A stretch of 64,000 nucleotides of DNA from the NCBI GenBank assembly GCA_963791045.1, contig CAWBQK010000007.1, positions 192,001-256,000 on the forward strand, read 5' to 3'. The notes under the pieces were generated by a model. The model worked only from the letters and a program-made list of their open reading frames with translations. It searched no databases and was not told where the DNA came from. Positions 7,738 to 55,919 of this stretch are shown here, in pieces; position 1 is the first letter of the stretch; each line of letters begins with the position of its first letter. Both the position numbers and the translations under genes were made by a program. This stretch comes from Candidatus Latescibacterota bacterium. GTDB lineage: Bacteria; Krumholzibacteriota; Krumholzibacteriia; WVZY01.

Positions 7738-10700
7738 ATGTTTAAAGCATACGTATATCTAATCGTGACCGTGTTGGGCGTTTTCCAGTTTGGGAACGTC
7801 ACCGCGGGTGTTGAGATCCTGCAGGAAGAGAACGGCAGGATAGTAGTCGACGTTCGTTTCGGCGCGCCTGGCCCCACGGGGGTCCCCGGCTCGTCATCGA
7901 AACTCAACACGCCGGGGCTGCCGCCTTTGGGTTACGAACGTTTCTACGTGGCGATCCCCGCGGGCGGGGTTTTCCGCGTCTCCCGGATTGACGGAGTGGC
8001 GAACGAACGTGTCGGGAATTTACCTCTGCCCGTTGAGAACCACGATAAACGGGGTATTCTGCCCACAATCGAGCCCGGCCCGGGCTATTATCCCGAAAAT
8101 CCAATCGTCGTAACGGGCCCTTTCACCTTTCGCAAGACGAGGGTGATAGCCGTTGATTGTTATGTTTCGCAGGTTGACCGGGCTGCCGGTGTTGAGAGGG
8201 TCTGGCAGGGTTACCGGGTGGAAGTGTCGTATCCGGCGCACCGCTCGTATCTCACGGCGGATCGGGCCGATCCGCTGGTTGCCGGCACCGTCATAAACAA
8301 GTCTTTTTTGCCGGTTCCCGGAACCCCCGCTACTGCGCCGGATGGGCTTGCCTCGGGGGCGAGTCCCGCCGGGAATCCCGACCCGCATTTCTCACTCTCC
8401 CAAAACTGGATGAAGATTCGCGTCGACACCGCGGGCGTGTACGCGCTGGACGCGGTTGATTTTGCCGCGCTGGGCGTGGATCCGTCGTCAATCAATGATC
8501 CCGGGAGCTTCAGGCTCTTCACTCACGGGGGCACAGAGCTCGAACGGCGTGACGCGATGCGCCGCCCGTACCAGGATATGGACGGGACGTGGCGCCCGGG
8601 GAACTGGATGAATGAGTGCGACATTTTTGTCGATTACGGTGGCGATGGGACATTCGATCCGGGTGACAAGGTTATTTTCTATGGTGTGGGCTCCAGGGGG
8701 TGGCGCGATTTCTACGAGCGGGGAGCCCCGAGATACGAGTTCCACGATCATCTCTATACAAAGGGCAATTACTATTACCTGACGTGGGATGATACTCCGG
8801 GTTTCTCCGGGGTGCCGGGACGTATGGCGCTGGTGAACTCCGCTCCCCAGCCGGCCAATCCCGACGTGATCGATTTTGAAGAGCGCTTGTTTTTCGAGAG
8901 AAATCAGGTTGAGGCCTTGTCGTTCGGCGGGGACGGATGGCTCTGGATCGAAGTATCAGAAAAGACGGGGCCTGAGACGATCACGTTCCAACCGTTCGAG
9001 ATTTACAATTTCGTGGACTCGCGCCCACAAACATTCCGGACTCTGGCGCTGGCGCCGTATATCTACGGGGAAAGCAACAGGAATCATCATGCGGTGTACC
9101 GGATGAACGGTGCGCAAATCACCGACAGCGTTTTCGACAATCCAAACAACGCGGGTTACGAGAACGCAATCCCGGTCGAAAAGGCGGGCTCGTTCTTGCT
9201 CCCCGGCACCAATACTTTCCAGCTCAACATACCACGCGATCTCAATCCTTCGGATTTTATGTATTTTGATTTGTACTCGGTCTTCTATTACCGCCAGTTG
9301 ACGACGCGGGGTGGAAGTATTTCTTTTGGCTCACCCGACACAACGGGCTCGGTCAATTTCCGAGCGACCAACTTCTCGCCGGGGAGTCCCATTTATCTCT
9401 TCGATGTATCCGATCAGTTCAAACCACGTTTTCTTTCGAGTTTCGAACGGAGCGATGTTGGCGGCCGCGACCAGATCCGGTTCTCCTCGCAGATAGGTGG
9501 GGGGCGCGAATACTACTGGGCGGGCAACGAGGAAGCGCTTCGCAAGCCCGCTACGATGATCAGGCATTTCCCGAGAGATTTGAGAAACGTGACGTCGTCT
9601 CCGAACATGCTCATCGTCAGCCACCCGGATTTCATGGCGGCGGCGACGCGGTTGAAGCAGCACAGGCAGTCTCACTATCCGTACGGGACGAATCCGGATA
9701 TTGAAATCGTAACAACGGTGGACGTGTTCGATAATTTCTCGGGCGGTATGATTGATCCAATCGCGATCCGGAACTATTGCAAGTTCCTCTACGATAATTA
9801 TGATGATGGGAACGGTAATACTCCGCTCTCGTTCCTGCTTTTGCTCGGCGATGCGAATAATGATTACAAAAACAACATCACGAACCAGGAAAACTTTGTT
9901 ACGACCAATCTGAACCTCGCGCCTGGCAGTCTCGACGCTTACGCGACCGATGACTGGTTTGTCGAAATGGAACAACCCGATTCGACGGGTGCTTCCTATA
10001 TGCAAATAGCCGTCGGGCGCATTCCGGCGGGGTCGTCGCAGGACGCGATGTTCCTCGTTGACAGGATTGTCGACTACCAAACGGCCGCGGAGTTCGGCCC
10101 CTGGCGGAACCGCGCGATCCTCGTGGCCGACGACGAAGTCACTCCGTCGCACCCGCCGCAGCCGATGTTTGTAAGCCAGACCGAAAGCATCGCGCATGGG
10201 TACATGGCGAATTTTCATGAAGCACGCAAGATCTATTTGACCGAGTATCCGTTCGTTGGATCGATCAAGCCGGCGAGCCGTCTCGAATTTCTTAACGAAT
10301 GGAACGACGGTGCGCTGATGATCAACTACATCGGGCACGGCAGCTCGGTGCAGATGGCGGACGAACAGGTGTTTCTTGGGAGCGACGTCGCCAACCTTCG
10401 AAACGGTCTCCGTCTCCCTCTCTTTATGGCGTTCAGTTGTACGATAGGCGATTTCGGGCGCGCACAGACGGTGAGTCTCTCCGAAAAGCTACTCCTGTGG
10501 ACGCAGGGAGGAGCGATCGCGACGATTACCGCTTCTGAGGTGTCACTCATCGATCCCAACGCCTCGCTCAATACGAGGTTTTTCTTGGAAGTGTCTCCCC
10601 GGACACCGGGGCCACCGGAACCGCTTGGTGTCGCGCTTCTGCGGGCCAAGACATCGGCGCTGAGCGTATCGGTGAGCAAACGAATCGTTGAGGAAAACAG

Positions 10701-11790
10701 CCACAAGTACAATTTGCTGGGCGATCCCGCCCTCCAGCTGGTTATGCCGACACGGAGCGTGAAATTCAACGTTAACGATGTAGATACGATGACGACGGGC
10801 AAGCGGCAGGTTGTGAGGGGATGGATTTACCGGGATGGACAAACGGATACGGGCTTCAACGGCAATGTGAATCTCGTTGTTCGTGAGCCCGACGACGGCA
10901 GCGGGTACACGAGTGAAGACGGAGTGACGTTTATACCGTACAGGTACGCGAGGGGGACCGTGTACGAGGGCACCGCGGATGTCCGGCAGGGCGAATTCGA
11001 ATTCAATTTCAAGATTCCGAGGTCCGCCGGTACGGGGCCTGTGGCCTTCGAGCGCGCGTATGTGGATGATGGACAAATGGACGCTATCGCACTGTGTGAT
11101 ACGACCGTCTTTTCCGCCCCATCACCGGGGGACACCACGGTCTTGACCCCGATCGACGGATCGCCCCGTGTGGATTTTGGATTCAAAGGGGGGCAGACGA
11201 TCGTCAAACCGGGGGCAATTCTCCAGGCGCGTGTCAACGACCTCGATGGCGTGAACATACTCAACACGACACCGGAGGGGAAGATCGCGCTCGTATTCGA
11301 CCAAACAAACCTGCCCATCGACGTGACCGATTCGTTCCAGTTCGATCACGGTGGCACCGATACCTCCGGGACCCTCGGCTTCCCTCTGCCCGAACTCAGT
11401 GTCGGAGGGCACCGGGCGATTCTGAAGGTGGCGGATAGCTTCGGACAAGTCACACTCGACACGTTGGAATTCTCGATGACCGATCCCCAGGATTTCGTCG
11501 CGCAGGTCGTCTTGAATTACCCAAACCCATTTACAACAACAACTTATTTCCTTGTGAACCTGACCGACAGGGCGGATATCCAGATTGACTTGTTTACGAT
11601 TTCCGGCAAAAGAATCAGAAGGCTCGAACAGATGGGCGATCCGGGAGAGGTTTGGATCAACTGGGATGGAAAAGACTCTGTTGGCGATAGCATCGCCAAT
11701 GGCACATATTTATATGTAGCACGCGTGAGTTTTGTAGGGCTCGATCGTGCGCCGGTCGTTTTGAGAGGAAAAGTCGCGAAAATTGAATAA
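7738..11790 (+). CDS. porU: Type IX secretion system sortase PorU-like protein (peptidase C25) with C-terminal FlgD-Ig/CTD-like domain
   Basis: W-K-I-x-V-x-x-x-G-V-Y start of the PorU body; FDNFSGG..DPIAIRNY; LLLLGD; AVGRIP; catalytic NYIGHG and AFSCTIG; YNLLGDPAL; C-terminal NYPNPF..ISGKRIR..WDGKD..GDSIANGTYLY. Confidence 0.85.
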   Translation: MFKAYVYLIVTVLGVFQFGNVTAGVEILQEENGRIVVDVRFGAPGPTGVPGSSSKLNTPGLPPLGYERFYVAIPAGGVFRVSRIDGVANERVGNLPLPVENHDKRGILPTIEPGPGYYPENPIVVTGPFTFRKTRVIAVDCYVSQVDRAAGVERVWQGYRVEVSYPAHRSYLTADRADPLVAGTVINKSFLPVPGTPATAPDGLASGASPAGNPDPHFSLSQNWMKIRVDTAGVYALDAVDFAALGVDPSSINDPGSFRLFTHGGTELERRDAMRRPYQDMDGTWRPGNWMNECDIFVDYGGDGTFDPGDKVIFYGVGSRGWRDFYERGAPRYEFHDHLYTKGNYYYLTWDDTPGFSGVPGRMALVNSAPQPANPDVIDFEERLFFERNQVEALSFGGDGWLWIEVSEKTGPETITFQPFEIYNFVDSRPQTFRTLALAPYIYGESNRNHHAVYRMNGAQITDSVFDNPNNAGYENAIPVEKAGSFLLPGTNTFQLNIPRDLNPSDFMYFDLYSVFYYRQLTTRGGSISFGSPDTTGSVNFRATNFSPGSPIYLFDVSDQFKPRFLSSFERSDVGGRDQIRFSSQIGGGREYYWAGNEEALRKPATMIRHFPRDLRNVTSSPNMLIVSHPDFMAAATRLKQHRQSHYPYGTNPDIEIVTTVDVFDNFSGGMIDPIAIRNYCKFLYDNYDDGNGNTPLSFLLLLGDANNDYKNNITNQENFVTTNLNLAPGSLDAYATDDWFVEMEQPDSTGASYMQIAVGRIPAGSSQDAMFLVDRIVDYQTAAEFGPWRNRAILVADDEVTPSHPPQPMFVSQTESIAHGYMANFHEARKIYLTEYPFVGSIKPASRLEFLNEWNDGALMINYIGHGSSVQMADEQVFLGSDVANLRNGLRLPLFMAFSCTIGDFGRAQTVSLSEKLLLWTQGGAIATITASEVSLIDPNASLNTRFFLEVSPRTPGPPEPLGVALLRAKTSALSVSVSKRIVEENSHKYNLLGDPALQLVMPTRSVKFNVNDVDTMTTGKRQVVRGWIYRDGQTDTGFNGNVNLVVREPDDGSGYTSEDGVTFIPYRYARGTVYEGTADVRQGEFEFNFKIPRSAGTGPVAFERAYVDDGQMDAIALCDTTVFSAPSPGDTTVLTPIDGSPRVDFGFKGGQTIVKPGAILQARVNDLDGVNILNTTPEGKIALVFDQTNLPIDVTDSFQFDHGGTDTSGTLGFPLPELSVGGHRAILKVADSFGQVTLDTLEFSMTDPQDFVAQVVLNYPNPFTTTTYFLVNLTDRADIQIDLFTISGKRIRRLEQMGDPGEVWINWDGKDSVGDSIANGTYLYVARVSFVGLDRAPVVLRGKVAKIE

Positions 11791-11815
11791 GAGTATTCGA
11801 GTTACGTTTGGTTGC

Positions 11816-11844
11816 TTGACCCCACCGGTGAAACTTAGTATCAT
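11816..11844 (+). promoter_or_regulatory. Sigma70-type promoter upstream of porV
   Basis: TTGACC (11816-11821), 17 nt, TATCAT (11839-11844); GGGAGG RBS before the ATG at 11870. Confidence 0.65.
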
Positions 11845-11869
11845 TTAATCGAATGGGAGGCTTTAGCTT

Positions 11870-12859
11870 ATGCGTTTCAGGTTAATCGGTGGCATTGCCA
11901 CTATTATTGTGCTTGTTTCATCGGCCACTGTTTTCGCCGTTGGTGAGGCGGGTGTACCGTCGCAGATCATTCCCCCCGGCGCGCGGGCAAACGGTATGGG
12001 CGAGAGCTTCGTCGCTATCGCCGATGATGCAACTGCGGCCTGGTGGAACCCTGGTGGGGTGGCGTTTCTTCGCGGCCGTAATCTTGCGCTCATGCACAGC
12101 CAGCTCGTACCAGATCTGGCCAGTGACGTTTACTATGAGTACCTGGGGTATACCAATGAAATTGAAGGAGTGGGGTCGTTGAGTTTCGGATTGGTCTATT
12201 TGACCTACGGGACCAGTGTCGCCACCAACACCCAGGGCGAAAAAACAGGAGAGTTCAAGAGTTGGGAAGCGTCTGCCGTCGTCACGTTTGCCATCCCCCT
12301 CGGTGAGAACATCGGTGTGGGTCTGTCGGGAAAATTCATTCACGCGGATCTGGCGCCGGCCGACCTGACCCTCGAGAAGCTCGACGGCACCGGGTCGTCT
12401 GTTGCGATTGATGCCGGTATGTTGTGGAAGATTCCGCGCTACAGAATCAATTTTGGGACGTCGCTTACAAATCTTGGTCCGGACATCACGTTTATCGATC
12501 AGGAACAGAGCGACCCTCTGCCCCTGACGCTTCGTGTTGGTGTCGCATGGACGGCGCTTTCGAGCGAGGTAAACAACTTTATCGCTACGGTTGATTTCGA
12601 ACAGAGTCTTGTGTGGCTCATCGACAGCGCCACGCAGACACGCCGGAGTGAGATCTACCATCTAGGTATGGAATATCGCTATATAAACCTGCTCGCCGGA
12701 CGTCTTGGTTATGTCTACGACCAGGATGGTGATTTCAAAGATTTTACTTACGGTCTGGGGTTCATTTATAAGGGCAAGGTTGCACTCGATTACGCCAACG
12801 TACCGCAGGCGACGACGCTCGACCGCGTTCACCGCTGGTCGATTTCTGTGTCGTTCTAA
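11870..12859 (+). CDS. porV: PorV/PorQ family outer-membrane protein (FadL-like barrel, T9SS shuttle)
   Basis: IPPGARANGMGESFVAIADDATAAWWNPGG; TNLGPDI; DPLPLTLRVG; terminal Phe; directly follows porU as in Bacteroidota. Confidence 0.85.
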   Translation: MRFRLIGGIATIIVLVSSATVFAVGEAGVPSQIIPPGARANGMGESFVAIADDATAAWWNPGGVAFLRGRNLALMHSQLVPDLASDVYYEYLGYTNEIEGVGSLSFGLVYLTYGTSVATNTQGEKTGEFKSWEASAVVTFAIPLGENIGVGLSGKFIHADLAPADLTLEKLDGTGSSVAIDAGMLWKIPRYRINFGTSLTNLGPDITFIDQEQSDPLPLTLRVGVAWTALSSEVNNFIATVDFEQSLVWLIDSATQTRRSEIYHLGMEYRYINLLAGRLGYVYDQDGDFKDFTYGLGFIYKGKVALDYANVPQATTLDRVHRWSISVSF

Positions 12860-12941
12860 AACCGCGGAGACTGAGGCGTCTTCCCCTGATAATCTCCATA
12901 GGTCGGTCATCTGACCGCCGTCACACGAAAAGGGTTACCCC

Positions 12942-13883
12942 GTGCGGTTAGGGTTCATCTTTGCATTGGCATTCTTTGTGTTGGCCGGCCCCTGCTCGCT
13001 TGCAGCTGAGCCGTCAAACGTTCCTGGTTCGTCGGGACCGCCGGACGGCGAGCTGAAAGATCTGATCCCGCTATCCATAATGTCATATCAGGGTCCGAGA
13101 GACCCGGAACTCGAGTTACCCACCATCAGAGTTGAAGATGGGGAACGCGGTCTTCGTCTGTATCACCCCGGTGCCGCGGAGCCGAGATTCCTGGACACGG
13201 GAGACCATGAATCCCCGGGTGGCAGAACGTATCTTCCCGTATTGTTTTCGTTGCTCGTGCCTGGAACGGGCGAGATGTACATGGGGTACTGGGTTCGGGG
13301 TGGTGTTCTCCTCGGTCTCGAAATCGCCGCGTGGACGGGATATACGCACTATCACAATCAGGGGCTCGACGGCCGGACCGCGTACGAACAGTTTGCCGAC
13401 GACCACTGGGACTACGACCGGTGGGTGTACGATCATCCGGCGAATGAGAGCGTCAATCCCGACGACCGCACATTTGAAACGCTGGATGAGATTGGCCGGA
13501 CCACCTGGGACGGATGGCCGGGGTATCACACCTGGCATTCCAAAGAGGAAGAAAAGCAGAATTACTACGAAAACATCGGCAAATACGATTGGTTTATTTC
13601 AGGTTGGGAAGACTGGGATTCGGTTGCCAAGCCCAGGGATACCGACCTCAGAACCCAGTACAGGCAGATGCGGATATCGAGCAACGATGATCTCGACACG
13701 GCGAACAAGTTCATATATCTTAGTATCGCCACTCGCGTCGTGTCTCTGGTGCAAACTTACTTCCTGGTCCGGCGGGACATAAATCGTGAGGCGGAATTGA
13801 ACCAGGCAAAAACGTTTTCGATCGACGCTCATGCAACGGGGCTTGCCTCCGGGCGGGTATCGCTGATTTACCGTTTCAAATAA
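12942..13883 (+). CDS. Exported/membrane hypothetical protein (DUF5683-like), paralog 1
   Basis: Signal peptide; FSLLVPGTGEMYMG helix-hairpin motif; NYYENIGKYD. Confidence 0.6.
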   Translation: MRLGFIFALAFFVLAGPCSLAAEPSNVPGSSGPPDGELKDLIPLSIMSYQGPRDPELELPTIRVEDGERGLRLYHPGAAEPRFLDTGDHESPGGRTYLPVLFSLLVPGTGEMYMGYWVRGGVLLGLEIAAWTGYTHYHNQGLDGRTAYEQFADDHWDYDRWVYDHPANESVNPDDRTFETLDEIGRTTWDGWPGYHTWHSKEEEKQNYYENIGKYDWFISGWEDWDSVAKPRDTDLRTQYRQMRISSNDDLDTANKFIYLSIATRVVSLVQTYFLVRRDINREAELNQAKTFSIDAHATGLASGRVSLIYRFK

Positions 13884-13885
13884 CT

Positions 13886-14725
13886 ATGACTAATCGAATT
13901 GTATTACTGATTCTTGTGTTTGTGATTGCGGCGATGCCGCTCTCCCTGCATGCGCAGGATGCGCAAACATCCACGCTTCGAAATTCGCAGCCAACCACCG
14001 ACACCGACTGGCAGAGCGCGACAGGGTTGGCCGGGAATGACAATTTTGGCGGGATGTTCCAAACCGTGCCGACGGACGCACCCATATACGAACAGAAATC
14101 AAAATCAAAGGCTTTCTTTTACTCACTGCTTCTCCCTGGGCTCGGCCATGCTTACGTGGGCGACAAGCAAGGCGCAAAAACGTTTTTTATTATCGAGGCG
14201 GCGATCTGGACGTCTTTCATATTTTTTGAGGTTCAGGGTTATATTCGAGAGGAAAATTATCAGGATTACGCCCAGGTTTTTGCCGGAGTGTCCGGCACCA
14301 ATAAATCCGATGATTATTACAGTCTCATCGGCCAGTACGATTCCTGGGTCGATTACGAGGCGTATCTGAAGAACGAAGGACGGTTCGCGCTATACCCGGA
14401 TGCGGATTCGCAAACTCTCGACGAGTACTTTATTGACAATCGTGTATCGGATTATGAGCCGTGGGTGTGGCGGAGCGTCGATGAACGGCGGACTTTCAGA
14501 GGCAACCGTTCGGACAGTAAGCTTTCGTACCGCCGGGCCCTTTACGCTGTGGCGGTCGCTATGGGGAACCGCGCGGCGGCGGCATTTTTCTCGCTGGGTG
14601 CGACAAACAATGCCAATGAAAAGCTCGATGGGAATTCGATCGGCTACGGGTTGGAGTTTGGAGCGCCGGTGGATCATCCCGGGGATGATTTCGAAACCGG
14701 GGTATCGTTTATCGCGACCTTTTAA
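13886..14725 (+). CDS. Exported/membrane hypothetical protein (DUF5683-like), paralog 2
   Basis: Signal peptide; KSKSKAFFYSLLLPGLGHAYVG; DYYSLIGQYD; terminal Phe; starts 2 nt after paralog 1. Confidence 0.6.
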   Translation: MTNRIVLLILVFVIAAMPLSLHAQDAQTSTLRNSQPTTDTDWQSATGLAGNDNFGGMFQTVPTDAPIYEQKSKSKAFFYSLLLPGLGHAYVGDKQGAKTFFIIEAAIWTSFIFFEVQGYIREENYQDYAQVFAGVSGTNKSDDYYSLIGQYDSWVDYEAYLKNEGRFALYPDADSQTLDEYFIDNRVSDYEPWVWRSVDERRTFRGNRSDSKLSYRRALYAVAVAMGNRAAAAFFSLGATNNANEKLDGNSIGYGLEFGAPVDHPGDDFETGVSFIATF

Positions 14726-14782
14726 TTTCCGTTGACCTTCGGTCTCTCACAAACCAGCCTGCCCACCGACCGAAGAGACTCC

Positions 14783-15709
14783 ATGTATAAGTATATCGTT
14801 ATTGGAATATGGTTCGTGTTGACGCTCTTTCTCCTGGGAAGTTGTGCTTCCCAGGGGGGCGCAGCCAATGCGGCGGACTTACCCGTGGAACGCGAGGTTC
14901 CGGTCAAGGTGTACCACGAAGTTGCCGGGCTGGCGTTGGGTGAACCTCTCGCCGTTACCGTTGATATTGAAGGCAATATGTACATCGGGGACGGGATTCC
15001 GGGCCGGATCGTGTGCTGGCGCGCCGGCGGATCGGGCTCGCTCGAGTTCCAGAAGCCGAATCAGCAACCGGGGTTTTATCCGGCCGACATCGAACTAAGC
15101 GGCTTTTTTATATACGCAATCGATCCCGTCGAGAGAACTCTCCTGCGTTTCGACAACCGCGGCGCGTATCGGGACATCCTTGTCAAATTCGAGGACGTGG
15201 TTAGCGGCCGGAGAATTACACCGGTGGGCCTTGATGTCGACGATTCCGGGCGGATCCTCGTTGCGGATTCGGAGAATCACCAGGTCCTCCTTCTCGACTT
15301 GTATCTGTCCGTAGAGCTCGCATTTGGAAGTTACGGAACCCATCCTGGAAAATTCGACTCGCCGAAGGGTGTGACGTTTGTTGGCAATGGAGACATGCTC
15401 GTGGTGGATACGGGCAACCGGCGAATCCAGATCTTCGACGCCGGCGGAACTTATCTGAAAACAATACCATCGGAGAAATCGAATCCGATGATTAGTCCAA
15501 GGAGGGCGGATATCGACAAAATCGGTAATGTGTATGTTGCGGATCCCGAGGCGGGACGTGTGTTCGTGTTTGACGAGGATGGAGCGCTGATCAGGTCAAT
15601 CGTGCCCGACGGCGTGACCGATTTCAGGCCGACGGACATCGACGTGGATCGTACGGGTCTTATATACGTTACCGATGAGGCGAACAGTTCTCTTTTTGTT
15701 TTCAGGTGA
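14783..15709 (+). CDS. NHL-repeat six-bladed beta-propeller lipoprotein
   Basis: Lipobox LGSC; repeated P-x-G/D-(I/L/V)-x-V-D..G.(I/V)YV(A/T)D blades (FDSPKGV..VVDTGNRRIQIFD). Confidence 0.85.
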   Translation: MYKYIVIGIWFVLTLFLLGSCASQGGAANAADLPVEREVPVKVYHEVAGLALGEPLAVTVDIEGNMYIGDGIPGRIVCWRAGGSGSLEFQKPNQQPGFYPADIELSGFFIYAIDPVERTLLRFDNRGAYRDILVKFEDVVSGRRITPVGLDVDDSGRILVADSENHQVLLLDLYLSVELAFGSYGTHPGKFDSPKGVTFVGNGDMLVVDTGNRRIQIFDAGGTYLKTIPSEKSNPMISPRRADIDKIGNVYVADPEAGRVFVFDEDGALIRSIVPDGVTDFRPTDIDVDRTGLIYVTDEANSSLFVFR

Positions 15710-15721
15710 TGTCGTATTCGT

Positions 15722-18700
15722 GTGTCTCTGTGGAAAATATTCATTACCGCCGCGACTCTGCTGCTCGCCGCCGCGGTCAGCCACGCGCAGGAGGCATCCT
15801 ACGACTGGCAGGCGTGGGGCGCGGTCACGGACACGCTCCGTGCGGTCAAGAGGGGACAGCGCGTTGGGCTGAGTTCCTCGTTTATTAAGACGGGGAGCGA
15901 AAAAGTCGTAGTCAACGACGTCGTTCTCTCCCCGGTTGATTACGAAATCAACTATCAGCGCGGTCTGATCCGTATCGATGCATTGATCGGCGATGACATG
16001 CCGGTCATCGTTTCCTACACGAGGCTTCCTTTTCTTCTCAAGTCGGTGTATTCCCTCCGGCCCATCGAATTTGCCGAAGGAGAGGGCGACCGCGCCGTGG
16101 TTCCGAGACCGGAACCTCCGCCCGACTCCGCTTCCAAATCATATTTCAACCCCACGGGCAATCTCGCGTTCGGCGGCATGAAGTCGATCAGCTTCACGGT
16201 CGGTTCAAACAGGAGCGCGTCGCTTGACCAGGCTCTGAGGGCGACCGTCGAGGGGGATCTCACTTCATCGATAAAGGTCAAGGCGCTCCTTTCCGACGAT
16301 AACCTGCCGATCCAGCCTGAGGGCAACACCCAGGAACTCGAATATCTGGACAAAGTCTATGTCGAGATCACAGGGCCGAAAGCCGGAGCGACGCTCGGTG
16401 ATTTTGCGTTTGCAAACGACTATTCCGATTTCAATTTGTTCCGCCGCGAACTCAAAGGCGCGATGGGCAGCGTCAACCTGACCGACAAGTCGAGGGTCGA
16501 GGTTGCGGGCGGGTCGAGCAAGGGTGTGTTCCGCGCGGTCAAATTCCGTGGAATTAACCAGCTCCAGGGACCGTACGATCTTCTCGCCCAGGGCGGGTTT
16601 TCCAATGACGTGATCATAGCCGGTACCGAAAAGGTGTTTTTTGACGGTGAGCGGCTTCTGCGCGGACAGAACCGGGACTACGTGATCGACTACGATCGCG
16701 GGACGATTACGTTTACGACTCGGCGATCGGTTACGGCGGACACAGAGATAGCCGTCGATTTCGAAGCCACCCAGGAGAAATACGACAGGACGTCGTTGTT
16801 CGCAAATGCGATGACTCGAAATCTTCCCGCGGGATTTCGACTGAGCGCGCTCGCGGCGACCGAAAAAGACGATTCGAACAGACCCAAGTCGATAACGCTC
16901 AGCGATGAAGAGCGGGAGATCATCGCGGAGGCGGGGGACAATCCGACAAAGGCCATCGCGGGCGGAGCGACGTTTGTCGGCGAGGGGAGGGGATTATATC
17001 GTTGTGCCGGCGGATTCGATCCTGGGGACGCCGGAGTATTATGAGTTCAGCGATTCGTTGGGTACGTACAACGTTATCTTTGTCGATGTTGGCTTTCTCC
17101 AGGGCGATTATATCCTCGCGGGTATAACTGTCGCAGGCCGGACGATCTATCGATTTGTCGGGGAAGGCCAGGGGCGGTATATCGTCGGCAAGGCACTTCC
17201 GCTTCCCCAGGCGCACTCGATTTACACGGGCCGTTTGACGAGGGCCGGGGGGCGGTTTCTCGATGTCGATCTCCAGTACAATATCAGCGACTTTGACGCA
17301 AATACGCTCTCGCCCCTCGACGACCGGAACAATGTCGGGGACGCCGGCGAAGCCAGAATTCGGTTGAAAGCAATCCCTCTTCTTGTGGGAACACTCGATC
17401 TCACGGGGACGATGAGCACGATCGAAGACACCTATCGAAGCCTCGAGAAAACCCGACCGACTTACTTCTACCGCGACTGGAACCTGGAAAACGAACTGCT
17501 CGTCGGGAGGGAAGTTCTCCAGGAGGGAACGACGACATTCAAACGGAACGATTCGATCAAGCTCGACTACTCGATGGGCAAGATCCGGCGGGATAACTTC
17601 GATGGCACCAAGCAGGAAGTGCGCGCGTCCGTGGTCGCCGCCGCCGATCGCAAGCTCACCGGTCGCGCGTTTACGACCGACACCGACGGCGATCGCGACA
17701 AGAGAACACGTGAGCACGGAGATGTTGCCGTCTCGTACGGGTTGTGGAAATTTGTTCCCGCCTTCGAATACACAACCGAAGAGTACCTGGTCACGTCAGA
17801 GGTAACGGCGGACAGCGGGATTGCGTTCGATCGCTATGTGGCCCGGGTGGGCAGCCGCAACACCGGGCGGCTTTCATATTCTATATTTGCCGAGCAGAGG
17901 GATACTGAGGAGTTTGCGGATACCGGCCGGGTGTGGGTAGAGACGAGGACCGACCAGGCGATCGGGGGTTCTCTCTCTTCGCGTCGTTACCGGTCGCTCC
18001 AGGGAGAGGTTCGATATACGCACCGGATCCGCGATGACAAGGTGTTCAACTCGAAGAGCACATCGGATCTCGCCCGATTGAACGGGCTCGTCCGGCTCGA
18101 ACCGCTGGGTGTGCGTTCGACTCTCGATTATGAGATCAGCCAGAACCGGCAGCGCGCGCAACAACGGTCAGTAGTATTCGTGGGCGAGGGCCAGGGGGAC
18201 TACAACGAACTCGGCGAGCCGGTTGGAAAGGGCCGCGGCGCGTTCACGATAGTCTATCTGCCGACAACGCTCACCGTGCCGACGAGTACGCTCGACTTTA
18301 CATGGAATCTCACCTGGAAGATGAAGAAGAAAAGCAGGGGCCGCGGACCGTTCTCGTGGATCCTGTCGAATGTATCGCTCAATCAATCTTTCCGGGTGAG
18401 GGAGGAGACCACGGCTCGTGATGCGTACAAGGTGTACCTTCTTTTTCCGTCCGCGCTCCAGCGGGATGAATCGACGCTTGCCGGGATCGTGTCCCTTCGG
18501 CAGGAGTGGTCGCTTCTTGATTCCTACCCGAACTGGTCGCTGTCGGTCAAATACCAGAGGGATGACGAGGAGGAGAACAGATTCAATAACGTTAATGAAG
18601 AGCGGCTTTTCGAGCAGCAGCTTGTGAGGCTGGACCGTTCGCTGACTTCCAGGTTGAGCGCGAACATCGAACTGCGGCGTGAGATTAAACAACGTGGAGG

Positions 18701-19136
18701 CCGGGGGCTAACCGTCGGCGTTGGGAGCACGTTCGACGTGCTCGGGCTTGCCGCCGCGGCGGGGTGGGGGCTTCGGTTTTCGGCGGGGAGCACACTCGAT
18801 GGAGAAATCGAATACCGGCAACAGGAGGACTCGGAGTCCGGCGCGCGCGAGGTTGCGATTACGTTTCGCCCGCGTTTCGTTTGGCGCCTGACCAAGTCGC
18901 TGAACCTGTTTGGGCGCTATGAAGTCACACAGTTTACTTTAAGTGATGAGACAGGGATCAAGCCTTTCTATTTCGCGAATCCGGGCACCACGCACCGTTG
19001 GGCGCTGACGCCGAATTTGCGGTTGTCCAAAGTAATTTCGCTGCTCGGCACCTACCAGGGGCGGAGTGAAGAAACATTTTCAGGATCCAGGATTGTCGAC
19101 CATGAACTCACCGTGGAAACACGCGCATATTTCTAA
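15722..19136 (+). CDS. Large (~1138 aa) outer-membrane protein with SprA/Sov-like motifs; one frameshift at ~16990
   Basis: ORFs 15722-17044 and 16905-19136 join at a G run (GAGGGGAGGGGATTAT); adding 2 G restores VGEGRGDY, matching later VGEGQGRY/VGEGQGDY motifs; signal peptide; two G(S/T)EKV..DY.I(N/D)Y.RG.I motifs; beta-strand-rich C-terminal half ending RAYF. Confidence 0.7.
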
Positions 19137-20847
19137 GGCGATCTTGTTCGTGATTCTCGCCGTGCTGGCCCTCGGGTGGGGGCTGCTGGAACCGGTGTGG
19201 GCGGACGGAACGAGGGTCGAGATCAACGGCAACCGGGAATTCAGCGACGAGCAGATCCGCGGGTGGTGTAATTCTCGAAGTCCCGAGTCGTGTGTACGCG
19301 AGATTCAAACGGCGTACATTTCGCTTGGGTATATGCGGGTCACTATTGGCGTCGAACGCAGCACGGCGGATTCGACAATCGTACTCAATATCAGCGAGGG
19401 TGAGCCGGCGCGGTACCGGAGTGTATCGGTCGAGGGTGGAGAGGTCGCCCCCGCGGATAAGATAGGCGAGTTGATCGGGGTTCGTGAAGGGGACCGGTAT
19501 CTTCCGGATGAACTTCAACGCGGCGTTAACCGGCTTCTTGAATATTACGACCGGTACGGATATCCGTTTGCCCAGGTGTGGGTCGACAGTCTCGGCCTGG
19601 ACATGGCCGAAAACGTAATCGATCTGAATCTTTTTGTTGTTGAGGGCGGGCGCAAGGATATCGGCCGCGTGAAATTCGAGGGGCTCGAGCATACACGCGA
19701 GGACCTTGCCATAAAACTATCCGGCCTCAAACCCGGCGAGCCGTACAACGGCGAAAAGGTGAGGGAATCGTATCTGAGGCTCACCAGCAGCGGTGTTTTC
19801 AGGTCGGTGTCTTACCCCGAGGTTCGGATGGCGCCCGACGGAAGCGGAGTGGAAACACTTATCAAGGTTATCGAACCGGCGCAGAGCAACAGCTTCTCCG
19901 GTGCGTTGGGATATGCGGATCGCGAAGCCGATAATGAAAAGGTTATAAGTGGCCTTGTGCGTCTCGATCTCGTGAATATAGGCGGAGCGCTCAGGGATCT
20001 CCATATTTTCTGGAAGAATGACGGTCAGGGCAGAAGCGAAACATCGCTGTCATTTCGCGAGAGATTCCTCTTCGGGCATCGTGTGGGCCTGGGTGTGATG
20101 CTCGAACAGATCGGTCTCGATACGTTGTATACCTGGCAATCCGCCGGCCTGGAATCCTCCATCCCCATCGGGCGTTTGTGGGACGGACTTCTTGGGATCG
20201 ACGGCGCTGTGTACGGTGACAGAAATACACTGAGCGAAGGCGACATATCGAGCACTGTGCGTTACCGGCTCGCCGGCGGGATTTCTTTTGTCGAAGGGTA
20301 CGAGGAGAGAGGGACATTTATCGATCTTGGAACTCGTTACACTCTCGGTTACAAAAAGATACAAAAACGCGAAGACGATTCGGACGGAGGGTCCGTGTCG
20401 CAACATGTTTTCGAGGCGCGGATGCGGGGGCTGGTCGATGTTGGCCGAAGCGTCCACGGTTCGATCCAGGTGGTGTACAGAGGGTTGGAGAGTTCCGAGG
20501 AATTCGTGCCGCTTGCCGAGCAGTTCTACGTCGGGGGCGCGTCGACCATCCGCGGCTACAGGGAAAATCAGTTTCACGGAAGACGCGTGGCGTATTTGCG
20601 TTCGGAACTGCGGCTCGGCGGCAGCCGAAGGGAGAACGGATACCTGTTCGTCGACGGTGGTTATATCCTCCAGGAGACGCAAGATTCGGAGGGGATTGTG
20701 TCGCAGCGTGACGAGTATCCGGTGGGCTATGGCTTTGGTCTTAGAACGGCGTCACCCGCCGGAAACGTCGACATCAGTTTTGGCATCGGCGAAAAACTGT
20801 CTCTCAGGCAGACAAAAGTCCACGTGATTCTCAACAGAAACTTCTGA
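19102..20847 (+). CDS. Omp85 superfamily (BamA/TamA-like) protein with POTRA domains
   Basis: POTRA-like [29 protein letters not shown]; barrel loop-6 motif [19 protein letters not shown]; terminal Phe. Confidence 0.85.
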
Positions 20848-55517: not shown

Positions 55518-55919
55518 ATGAACACACTTCTGATGATCAAACCGGACATCGTGGCCGACGGGCGGTATGGGGAAGTCCTCGCTTTCGTTCTTAAGAACCG
55601 CTTCGAGGTAAAGAGCCTCCGCATGGTACATATGGATCGGAGCCGTGCCGAAGATTTTTATGGTGTCCACAAAGGAAAAGAGTTTTTCGAAGCGCTGATC
55701 GAGTACATAACCAGTGGTCCGGTGGTTGCCATCGAGATCGTTGGCGAAGACATCATTCCCAGGATTCGCGCGTTCGTCGGTGCGACGGATCCGGCCAAAG
55801 CGGAGCCGGGAACGATCAGGTATATGTATGGTAACTCTATACAAAACAATGCCGTACACGCATCCGATGCGCCGGAGTCAGCGAAAAAAGAACTTGCAAT
55901 CGTGTTCGGTGCCTCCTAA
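55518..55919 (+). CDS. ndk: Nucleoside-diphosphate kinase
   Basis: TLLMIKPD; FYGVHKGKEFF; SGPVV; GATDP..AEPGTIR; NAVHASD. Confidence 0.95.
   Translation: MNTLLMIKPDIVADGRYGEVLAFVLKNRFEVKSLRMVHMDRSRAEDFYGVHKGKEFFEALIEYITSGPVVAIEIVGEDIIPRIRAFVGATDPAKAEPGTIRYMYGNSIQNNAVHASDAPESAKKELAIVFGAS

Follow-up and report, generated by a model that had tools for sequence, protein, structure and literature searches.

The T9SS, or type IX secretion system, is understood almost wholly from Bacteroidota, and the PorLM motor and the PorKN ring are taken as core parts of it. The described systems closest to the locus reported here are the PorU–PorV(–PorQ–PorZ) attachment complex of Porphyromonas gingivalis and Flavobacterium johnsoniae and the translocon SprA (Sov), whose barrel has 36 strands. 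We analyzed a stretch of 64,000 nucleotides (the window; positions 192,001 to 256,000 of contig CAWBQK010000007.1, assembly GCA_963791045.1) from a Candidatus Latescibacterota bacterium, in which a block of seven genes at 7738–20847 encodes PorU, PorV and five further envelope proteins, among them a giant outer-membrane barrel. This conserved operon of the Krumholzibacteriota/Latescibacterota type joins PorU and PorV to a five-protein outer-membrane module, and we see an even chance that the module is an accessory of a T9SS variant.

Like the known attachment complex, the locus has adjacent porU and porV genes, a His/Cys pair and a tail resembling the C-terminal domain (CTD) of T9SS proteins. 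It differs from that complex in that five further conserved genes are included in the operon, that no PorZ was identified, and that no PorK/L/M/N was recognized in the source genome or in a sample of the phylum. A review states that the T9SS occurs in the Fibrobacteres–Chlorobi–Bacteroidetes (FCB) superphylum (PMC11205867), and CTD proteins have been noted in SAR406 (PMC5596340). In the accessible sections of the Krumholzibacteriota paper PMC11495043, neither "T9SS" nor "type IX" appears. A search of the literature, with supplements outside its scope, found nothing on a T9SS in Latescibacteria or Krumholzibacteriota or on the present operon, the T9SS papers being centered on Bacteroidota.

Genes and layout of the operon

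Eight open reading frames (ORFs), all on the plus strand, span 7738–20847 and make up seven genes, the barrel gene being divided over two ORFs. The co-oriented genes that a first-pass annotation, made from the DNA letters alone, had described here are therefore real:

7738–11790, +: porU, T9SS sortase (NF033707, PF01364), with a C25 peptidase domain at residues 624–1001 and a weak CTD-like tail
11870–12859, +: porV, outer-membrane barrel of the PorV/PorQ family (NF033709; Pfam PorV 58.4 bits)
12942–13883, +: g3, 313-aa DUF5683-like protein that is paralogous to g4 and has a signal-peptide-like N-terminus, an aromatic residue at its end and a conserved S..PG.GE motif
13886–14725, +: g4, 279-aa DUF5683-like protein (sub-cut-off match to DUF5683, E 0.0011)
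14732–15709, +: NHL-repeat beta-propeller, probably a lipoprotein (PF01436; lipobox-like LLGSC)
15722–19136, +: gene of the giant outer-membrane barrel, ≈1137 aa, in ORFs 15722–17044 and 16905–19136, with a +1 frameshift in a G-run near 16984
19066–20847, +: Omp85-family protein with POTRA domains and a TamA-like size of 593 aa (PF07244, PF01103)

The successive intergenic gaps from porU to the barrel gene measure 79, 82, 2, 6 and 12 nt, and the barrel and Omp85 genes overlap, in agreement with the tight packing noted previously. Housekeeping genes flank the block on both sides: dnaE, an unknown gene and accA lie upstream of it, hutU and an amidohydrolase gene downstream. A promoter and terminator scan gave 11 promoter-like sites (7.3 expected) and 9 terminator-like sites (15.6 expected), which was not informative.

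The identities of PorU and PorV are genuine. PorU scored 554.3 bits against NF033707 (cut-off 420) and matched Peptidase_C25 (PF01364) with an E-value of 1.5e-74. Two residues inside the C25 domain, H867 and C901, were invariant in 25 of 25 aligned orthologues and, judging by their place in the domain, probably constitute the catalytic dyad. The His/Cys pair that the first-pass annotation had called intact was thus borne out, while the CTD-like tail it described is weak, reaching 18.1 bits against TIGR04183 on its own and 23 bits with its neighbors. The window PorV scored 217 bits against the PorV/PorQ family model NF033709 (cut-off 90), but only 135.4 bits against the PorV equivalog NF033710 (cut-off 250), and the PorQ equivalog cut-off was also not reached. 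It was the best of 14 PorV-family matches in the genome, six of which were over the cut-off.

Additional PorU-like genes were observed outside the locus. In the following, contigs of the source genome are given as C-numbers (C3, C4, C6, C10, C11 and C15). A PorU-like paralogue with a 1152-aa frame, 154 bits against NF033707 and a CTD match at its end lies at C3:97479–100811 on the plus strand, and similar second PorU-like copies are present in many genomes of the phylum. In the relative G089, a tandem pair of full-length PorU genes (538.5 and 535.6 bits) is found upstream of the conserved operon, at 55881–63600 of contig C85 of that genome.

Gene order and T9SS components across the phylum

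Gene order was compared in two sets of loci. The first comprised 13 loci of relatives, searched by tblastn with the window proteins, of which 10 were informative. The second comprised 20 genomes from six families that were picked for having PorU on long contigs, and is therefore non-random. In the first set, the seven genes were contiguous in seven loci, two loci were cut by a contig end and one had scaffold gaps; three more distant loci had porU–porV, a 3.5-kb insert and then g3–g4–(NHL)–barrel–Omp85. The locus with scaffold gaps (L021, of the relative G012) seemed to have no porU and porV next to the module, but its sequence is broken by five gaps of 100 N, including one within g3, and it was set aside as uninformative. 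All 20 loci of the second set had porU–porV–...–g3–g4–...–barrel–Omp85 in one order and on one strand, at 25–50% identity. By tblastn, an NHL orthologue was located between g4 and the barrel gene in nine of the 10 informative first-set loci and in 17 of the 20 second-set loci. Taken together, the order porU–porV–(M6-like CTD protein)–g3–g4–NHL–barrel–Omp85 was kept in 30 of 30 informative loci, so that the linkage of the five downstream genes to porU and porV held throughout; the first-pass annotation would have been refuted by a lack of this linkage combined with a full canonical gldKLMN/sprA set elsewhere, and this is not what was observed.

The insert between porV and g3 was present in 22 of the 30 informative loci, including 19 of the 20 in the second set. 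It encodes an M6-like pseudo-protease that bears a CTD, with 198–203 bits against NF052323 (cut-off 600) and a Por_Secre_tail match, and thus adds a further T9SS-type component inside the operon. The M6-like gene of the source genome is located elsewhere, at C10:96687–100680 on the minus strand (1178 aa, with a CTD and 148.7 bits against NF052323), directly upstream of the second-best PorV-family gene of the genome (171 bits). This pairing of a cargo-like, M6-like protein with a PorV paralogue of its own is reminiscent of the PorZ–PorQ pair. Since the insert is present in most loci and relocated in the source genome, the ancestral unit was likely one of eight genes, and the taxonomic order to which the window belongs has likely moved the M6-like gene away together with its PorV-like partner.

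The same trio of protein types is described by three NCBIfam models, for a T9SS-dependent M6-like inactivated metalloprotease (NF052323), a putative PorU2 (NF052324) and a putative PorV2 (NF052325), and it is found in most of the phylum. The proteins here differ in scoring below the cut-offs (177 versus 450 bits for PorU2, 43 versus 325 for PorV2 and ≈200 versus 600 for the M6-like protein), and the M6-like gene has left the locus in the window. Our guess, from their names and consecutive numbers, is that the three models describe one gene neighborhood.

The source genome assembly has 3.66 Mb in 21 contigs, with 80.9% completeness and 5.8% contamination. NCBI treats Krumholzibacteriota as a separate phylum, and the nearest homologues that match the barrel over its full length have Candidatus Latescibacterota or Candidatus Krumholzibacteria as source names. 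As the first-pass annotation had supposed from the sequence, this is not a typical Bacteroidota genome. A canonical SprA gene was found outside the locus, on C15 between rimP–nusA–infB and lptF/lptG, with 543 bits against TIGR04189. SprA was present in 41 of the 41 phylum genomes searched for it, with lengths of 2070–2330 aa, and PorU in all 121 searched, in 100 of them over the cut-off. With the canonical SprA encoded on a different contig, the locus does not amount to a secretion system in itself, and in that respect the earlier description of it as a compact secretion locus does not hold. A fragmentary second SprA-like gene was observed at C11:258545–261416 on the minus strand, where a 388-aa frame is 49.5% identical to SprA residues 348–674; short frames come after it, including one with a match to an Omp85 family model, and the gene adjoins phospholipid-synthesis genes.

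The genome contains 99 matches to the type-A CTD model TIGR04183, 97 of them over the cut-off. The motor and ring proteins gave a different result. GldL (TIGR03513), GldM (TIGR03517, PF12081) and GldN had no match in the genome at its completeness of 80.9%. Among the 121 phylum genomes, GldL was found in none at the cut-off (four weak matches of at most 21 bits), GldM in none at E≤0.01, and GldK in none at its cut-off of 350, 104 genomes having generic FGE-sulfatase-domain matches of at most 100.5 bits only. In the source genome GldK had no match at its cut-off either, the sole FGE-sulfatase domain there belonging to a 967-aa peptidase-like protein, whose tail it forms. To the extent that hidden Markov models trained on Bacteroidota can tell, the first-pass annotation was right that no gldK/L/M/N homologue is recognizable, and what it had observed in 64 kb extends to the genome and, for GldK, GldL and GldM, to the phylum sample. 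The genome thus combines a canonical SprA with about 100 CTD cargo matches while having no recognizable PorK/L/M/N.

The giant barrel and its companion proteins

In the window, the two ORFs of the barrel gene, of 440 and 743 aa, are in different frames and overlap at a GGGGAGGGG run. A match was found in 38 relatives. Of these, 29 have the gene in a single open frame of 1134–1151 aa, and most of the other frames are cut by a contig end or longer. When one base was omitted at 16984, the frame read through for 1137 codons and then ended in a stop codon. A related-strain contig (151 bases, depth 2, with nine other differences) is one base shorter at exactly this position. The canonical SprA gene (C15:123805–129927, minus strand) is similarly split, into ORFs of 1780 and 396 aa, the second of which aligns to residues 1661–2070 of the 2070-aa SprA of a relative (40% identity, E 5e-93). 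Two such breaks in giant genes of a 21-contig assembly suggest indel errors rather than decay, and the frameshift in the barrel gene is most likely, though not proven to be, an assembly error. The protein of ≈1138 aa described previously is, in this assembly, two ORFs and not one frame.

Neither of the two ORFs had a Pfam match, and a sequence search of the PDB with the barrel profile returned only a chance antibody match (E 0.3). An intact orthologue was modeled with AlphaFold2 from 42 aligned homologues, giving a mean predicted local distance difference test (pLDDT) score of 84.3 and a predicted TM-score of 0.72. In this model, a small beta domain at the N-terminus precedes about 36–38 long strands that run from residue 145 to the C-terminal Phe. 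In a Foldseek search of the PDB, SprA chains ranked first to fourth, with E-values of 8.5e-12 to 6.6e-9, and TonB-dependent receptors came next, from 1.8e-8. SprA was aligned by VIA-align with a Z-score of 14.7 over 731 residues, the longest alignment among those listed. The SprA family model TIGR04189, with a cut-off of 200, gave 34.6 bits for the N-terminal ORF of the window and 23.9 for the intact orthologue. A SprA-type beta motif was found twice in the barrel, at residues 39–103 and 292–345 (hhalign probabilities of 90% and 95.7%). Since only this short motif is common to the two in sequence, the barrel is not a SprA-family member by the model. The SprA-like motifs reported by the first-pass annotation stand. 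We conclude that, as modeled, the protein is probably a giant outer-membrane barrel with SprA-type motifs, whose predicted likeness to SprA is at the level of the fold class only. Compared with SprA/Sov (PDB 6H3I, 6H3J, 8GL6 and 8GL8), it is likewise a giant single chain with the short motif, but it has half the length (≈1137 versus 2070–2330 aa), and a true SprA coexists with it in the same genomes.

These properties raise the question of whether some of the CTD proteins use the barrel as an additional T9SS-type translocon, smaller than SprA, from which PorV would collect cargo as it does from SprA. The four best Foldseek matches, the 731 aligned residues, a strand number close to the 36 of SprA and the common motif all speak for such a role, as do the place of the barrel gene within the porV operon and the number of PorV paralogues in the genome. 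We nevertheless consider it quite unlikely: all 41 of the genomes searched already have a canonical SprA, which leaves no need for a second pore, the barrel is without the large inserted domains of SprA, and the likeness does not go beyond the fold class.

A scan of genome contigs with the barrel returned a single locus. The family of the barrel is very large, with 4365 representative clusters at E≤0.001 and 2307 at E≤1e-30, mostly 1100–1200 aa in length, and the source-given names are all "hypothetical protein" save for one odd Joint Genome Institute (JGI) label. A further large frame of the genome, of 1229 aa, has an LptD_N (OstA-like) domain at C6:341625–341993 and is likely the lipopolysaccharide (LPS) exporter. 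The Pfam LptD model PF04453 had no match in the genome, but it also missed a Bacteroides control and was hence uninformative.

The g3 and g4 proteins are paralogues (hhalign probability 99.7%, E 2.6e-26), as had been proposed, and their assignment to DUF5683 is less firm. The window g4 scored 19.4 bits against DUF5683 (PF18935; E 0.0011), under the Pfam gathering score of 26.7, although 21 of 34 g4 orthologues matched it at E≤0.01, the best at 2.1e-8. No Pfam or NCBIfam match was obtained for g3, whose nearest Atlas clusters are DUF5683 proteins (score 0.96–0.97). Both proteins have a conserved S..PG.G motif and signal-peptide-like N-termini (31 g3 orthologues were aligned), and both have an acidic residue within a hydrophobic helix, E104 of g4 in at least 90% of sequences and the consensus AxDxxxW in g3. 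A beta-signal-like aromatic residue ends all of the extracted sequences, 32 of g3 and 33 of g4. The signal-peptide-like N-termini and beta-signal-like C-termini together point to the outer membrane.

The AlphaFold2 model of g4 (pLDDT 81.9) consists of a signal helix, a disordered linker and a helical bundle at residues 73–247, with two very long helices, and it ends in a beta hairpin at the C-terminus. No significant relative was found for it by Foldseek (best E 0.49); rows for PorM/GldM appeared only at E 1.3–3.1 and were not taken as evidence of kinship. A wide VIA search yielded generic helical hairpins with a best Z-score of 7.5, and these were also rejected as relatives. The predicted complex of g3 and g4 received a score of 0.00, which weighs neither for nor against binding. 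Apparent g3–g4 and barrel–Omp85 fusions in two relatives turned out to be wrong-frame long ORFs in high-GC DNA.

The long helices and the lack of a recognizable motor could be taken to mean that g3/g4, the NHL protein and the barrel replace PorK/L/M/N as a trans-envelope or energy-coupling element for SprA. The PorK/L/M/N models remain under their cut-offs in the phylum sample, and hydrophobic helices with a conserved acidic residue, together with the two very long helices, would suit such an element. We regard this as very improbable, because the termini of g3 and g4 suggest the outer membrane and because no significant fold match supports it, PorM/GldM having come up only at the E-values given above.

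The NHL protein matched PF01436 with 79 bits across three stretches and has a lipobox-like LLGSC, in keeping with the propeller lipoprotein that was originally proposed. The Omp85 protein likewise has the domains expected of it, with POTRA (PF07244, 82 bits) and Omp85 (PF01103, 42 bits) above their cut-offs, and 32 bits for ShlB. It fell under the equivalog cut-offs for BamA (115 versus 297) and TamA (53 versus 625). The true BamA of the genome is on C4 with 498.7 bits, and the Omp85 protein of the window is a distinct paralogue. It resembles TamA and BamA in combining POTRA domains with a barrel, and TamA in size, but differs from TamA in having no TamB (DUF490) gene beside it in the locus.

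The role of the module

We infer a function for the module from the identities, folds and linkage of its genes. The most economical reading, and one that may equally well hold or fail, is that the locus is an accessory outer-membrane module of a T9SS variant without a recognizable motor. CTD cargo would leave via the canonical SprA, with PorU and PorV processing and carrying it, and the module would act at the outer membrane with PorU–PorV after the passage of the cargo through SprA. The barrel might serve as a membrane platform or as a second conduit for hand-over or attachment, and the Omp85 protein could be its dedicated insertase. The NHL lipoprotein, together with g3 and g4, might close or gate the very wide lumen of the barrel, by analogy with LptE in LptD, or with the cap, the Plug protein and PorV in the case of SprA. 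The LptD–LptE plug-and-barrel pair is comparable insofar as a large barrel and a lipoprotein that might occupy its lumen are encoded together, but there is no sequence or specific fold relation, LptD ranking 42nd in the Foldseek search.

Several observations weigh against this reading. The link of the five genes to PorU and PorV consists of gene order within one phylum and apparently a single class, and the flanking housekeeping genes dnaE, accA and hutU are also syntenic within the order. The Gld models were built from Bacteroidota and matched none of 14 control genomes, none of which bears a T9SS; lacking a positive control, the absence of the motor means "not recognizable" and is not proven. 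The TM-scores between the barrel and SprA are low (0.23–0.27 by Foldseek), ordinary porins reached Z-scores of 15–17 over ≈280 residues in VIA-align, equal to or above that of SprA, and the profile alignment of the barrel with SprA is limited to 52–65 columns, with no barrel-wide match. The g4 model is mostly helical, with hydrophobic helices, and does not settle the membrane placement of g3 and g4. Finally, we examined 40 barrel loci of at least 9 kb on metagenome contigs of the Ignavibacteria type or named "Bacteroidota bacterium", and tblastn detected no porU, g3, g4, NHL or Omp85 neighbor in them; in six of these loci, Pfam matches of 29 neighboring proteins were to housekeeping families (NUDIX, PfkB, RecO, UvrD and similar). 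These stand-alone barrels show that the barrel needs no T9SS context, and that its tie to the T9SS, drawn from gene order only, is lineage-specific. As an exception among the barrel loci, on one Ignavibacteria-type contig a PorV-family gene comes after that of a 1190-aa protein without a Pfam match (L116:1050–5670), 5 kb upstream of the stand-alone barrel.

The stand-alone barrels favor the main rival explanation, which we regard as possible though doubtful. On that view the five downstream genes are a module in their own right, for outer-membrane biogenesis or export, that takes no part in the T9SS mechanism and is merely co-transcribed with porU–porV as envelope genes. It could be, for instance, an exporter of lipid, glycan or protein that is built on a giant barrel and has an Omp85 and plug proteins to itself. 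The very large size of the barrel family, the barrels that stand alone among housekeeping genes, the lack of barrel-wide sequence homology to SprA and the synteny of the flanks within the order are all in its favor. In the accessible part of one study, moreover, a DUF5683 protein of P. gingivalis is listed in an outer-membrane-vesicle proteome with the localization "unknown" and is not named there as a T9SS component (PMC13744359). On the other hand, the order of the genes is kept in every informative locus down to 25–35% identity while the flanks change, and a CTD cargo-type gene stands in the middle of the block in 22 of 30 loci. The LptD_N-bearing frame on C6 furthermore makes it unlikely that the barrel is an LPS exporter.

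Compared with the accessory module, a bolder proposal would be that the whole operon encodes a machine for surface attachment and secretion that is independent of PorK/L/M/N, with the barrel as a minimal SprA-type conduit or hub that is gated by the DUF5683-type and NHL proteins and inserted by the Omp85 protein. We consider this unlikely. If true, the barrel family, with more than 4000 unnamed clusters, would be an unrecognized and widespread class of giant outer-membrane translocons in FCB-type bacteria, and the operon would give insight into a T9SS of simpler and possibly older design.

The sample of this uncultured phylum has SprA, PorU and PorV, with about 100 CTD matches in the source genome, and no recognizable motor or ring; its operon keeps PorU and PorV together with another giant barrel and four more envelope proteins that are unnamed. 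Should the module not work with PorU–PorV, the barrel family would still be a large unexplained class of outer-membrane proteins. If it does work with them, its proteins would define new accessory subunits of the T9SS and provide a first functional handle on the very large family of ≈1150-aa barrels, and the minimal energy-independent part of the T9SS would become testable.

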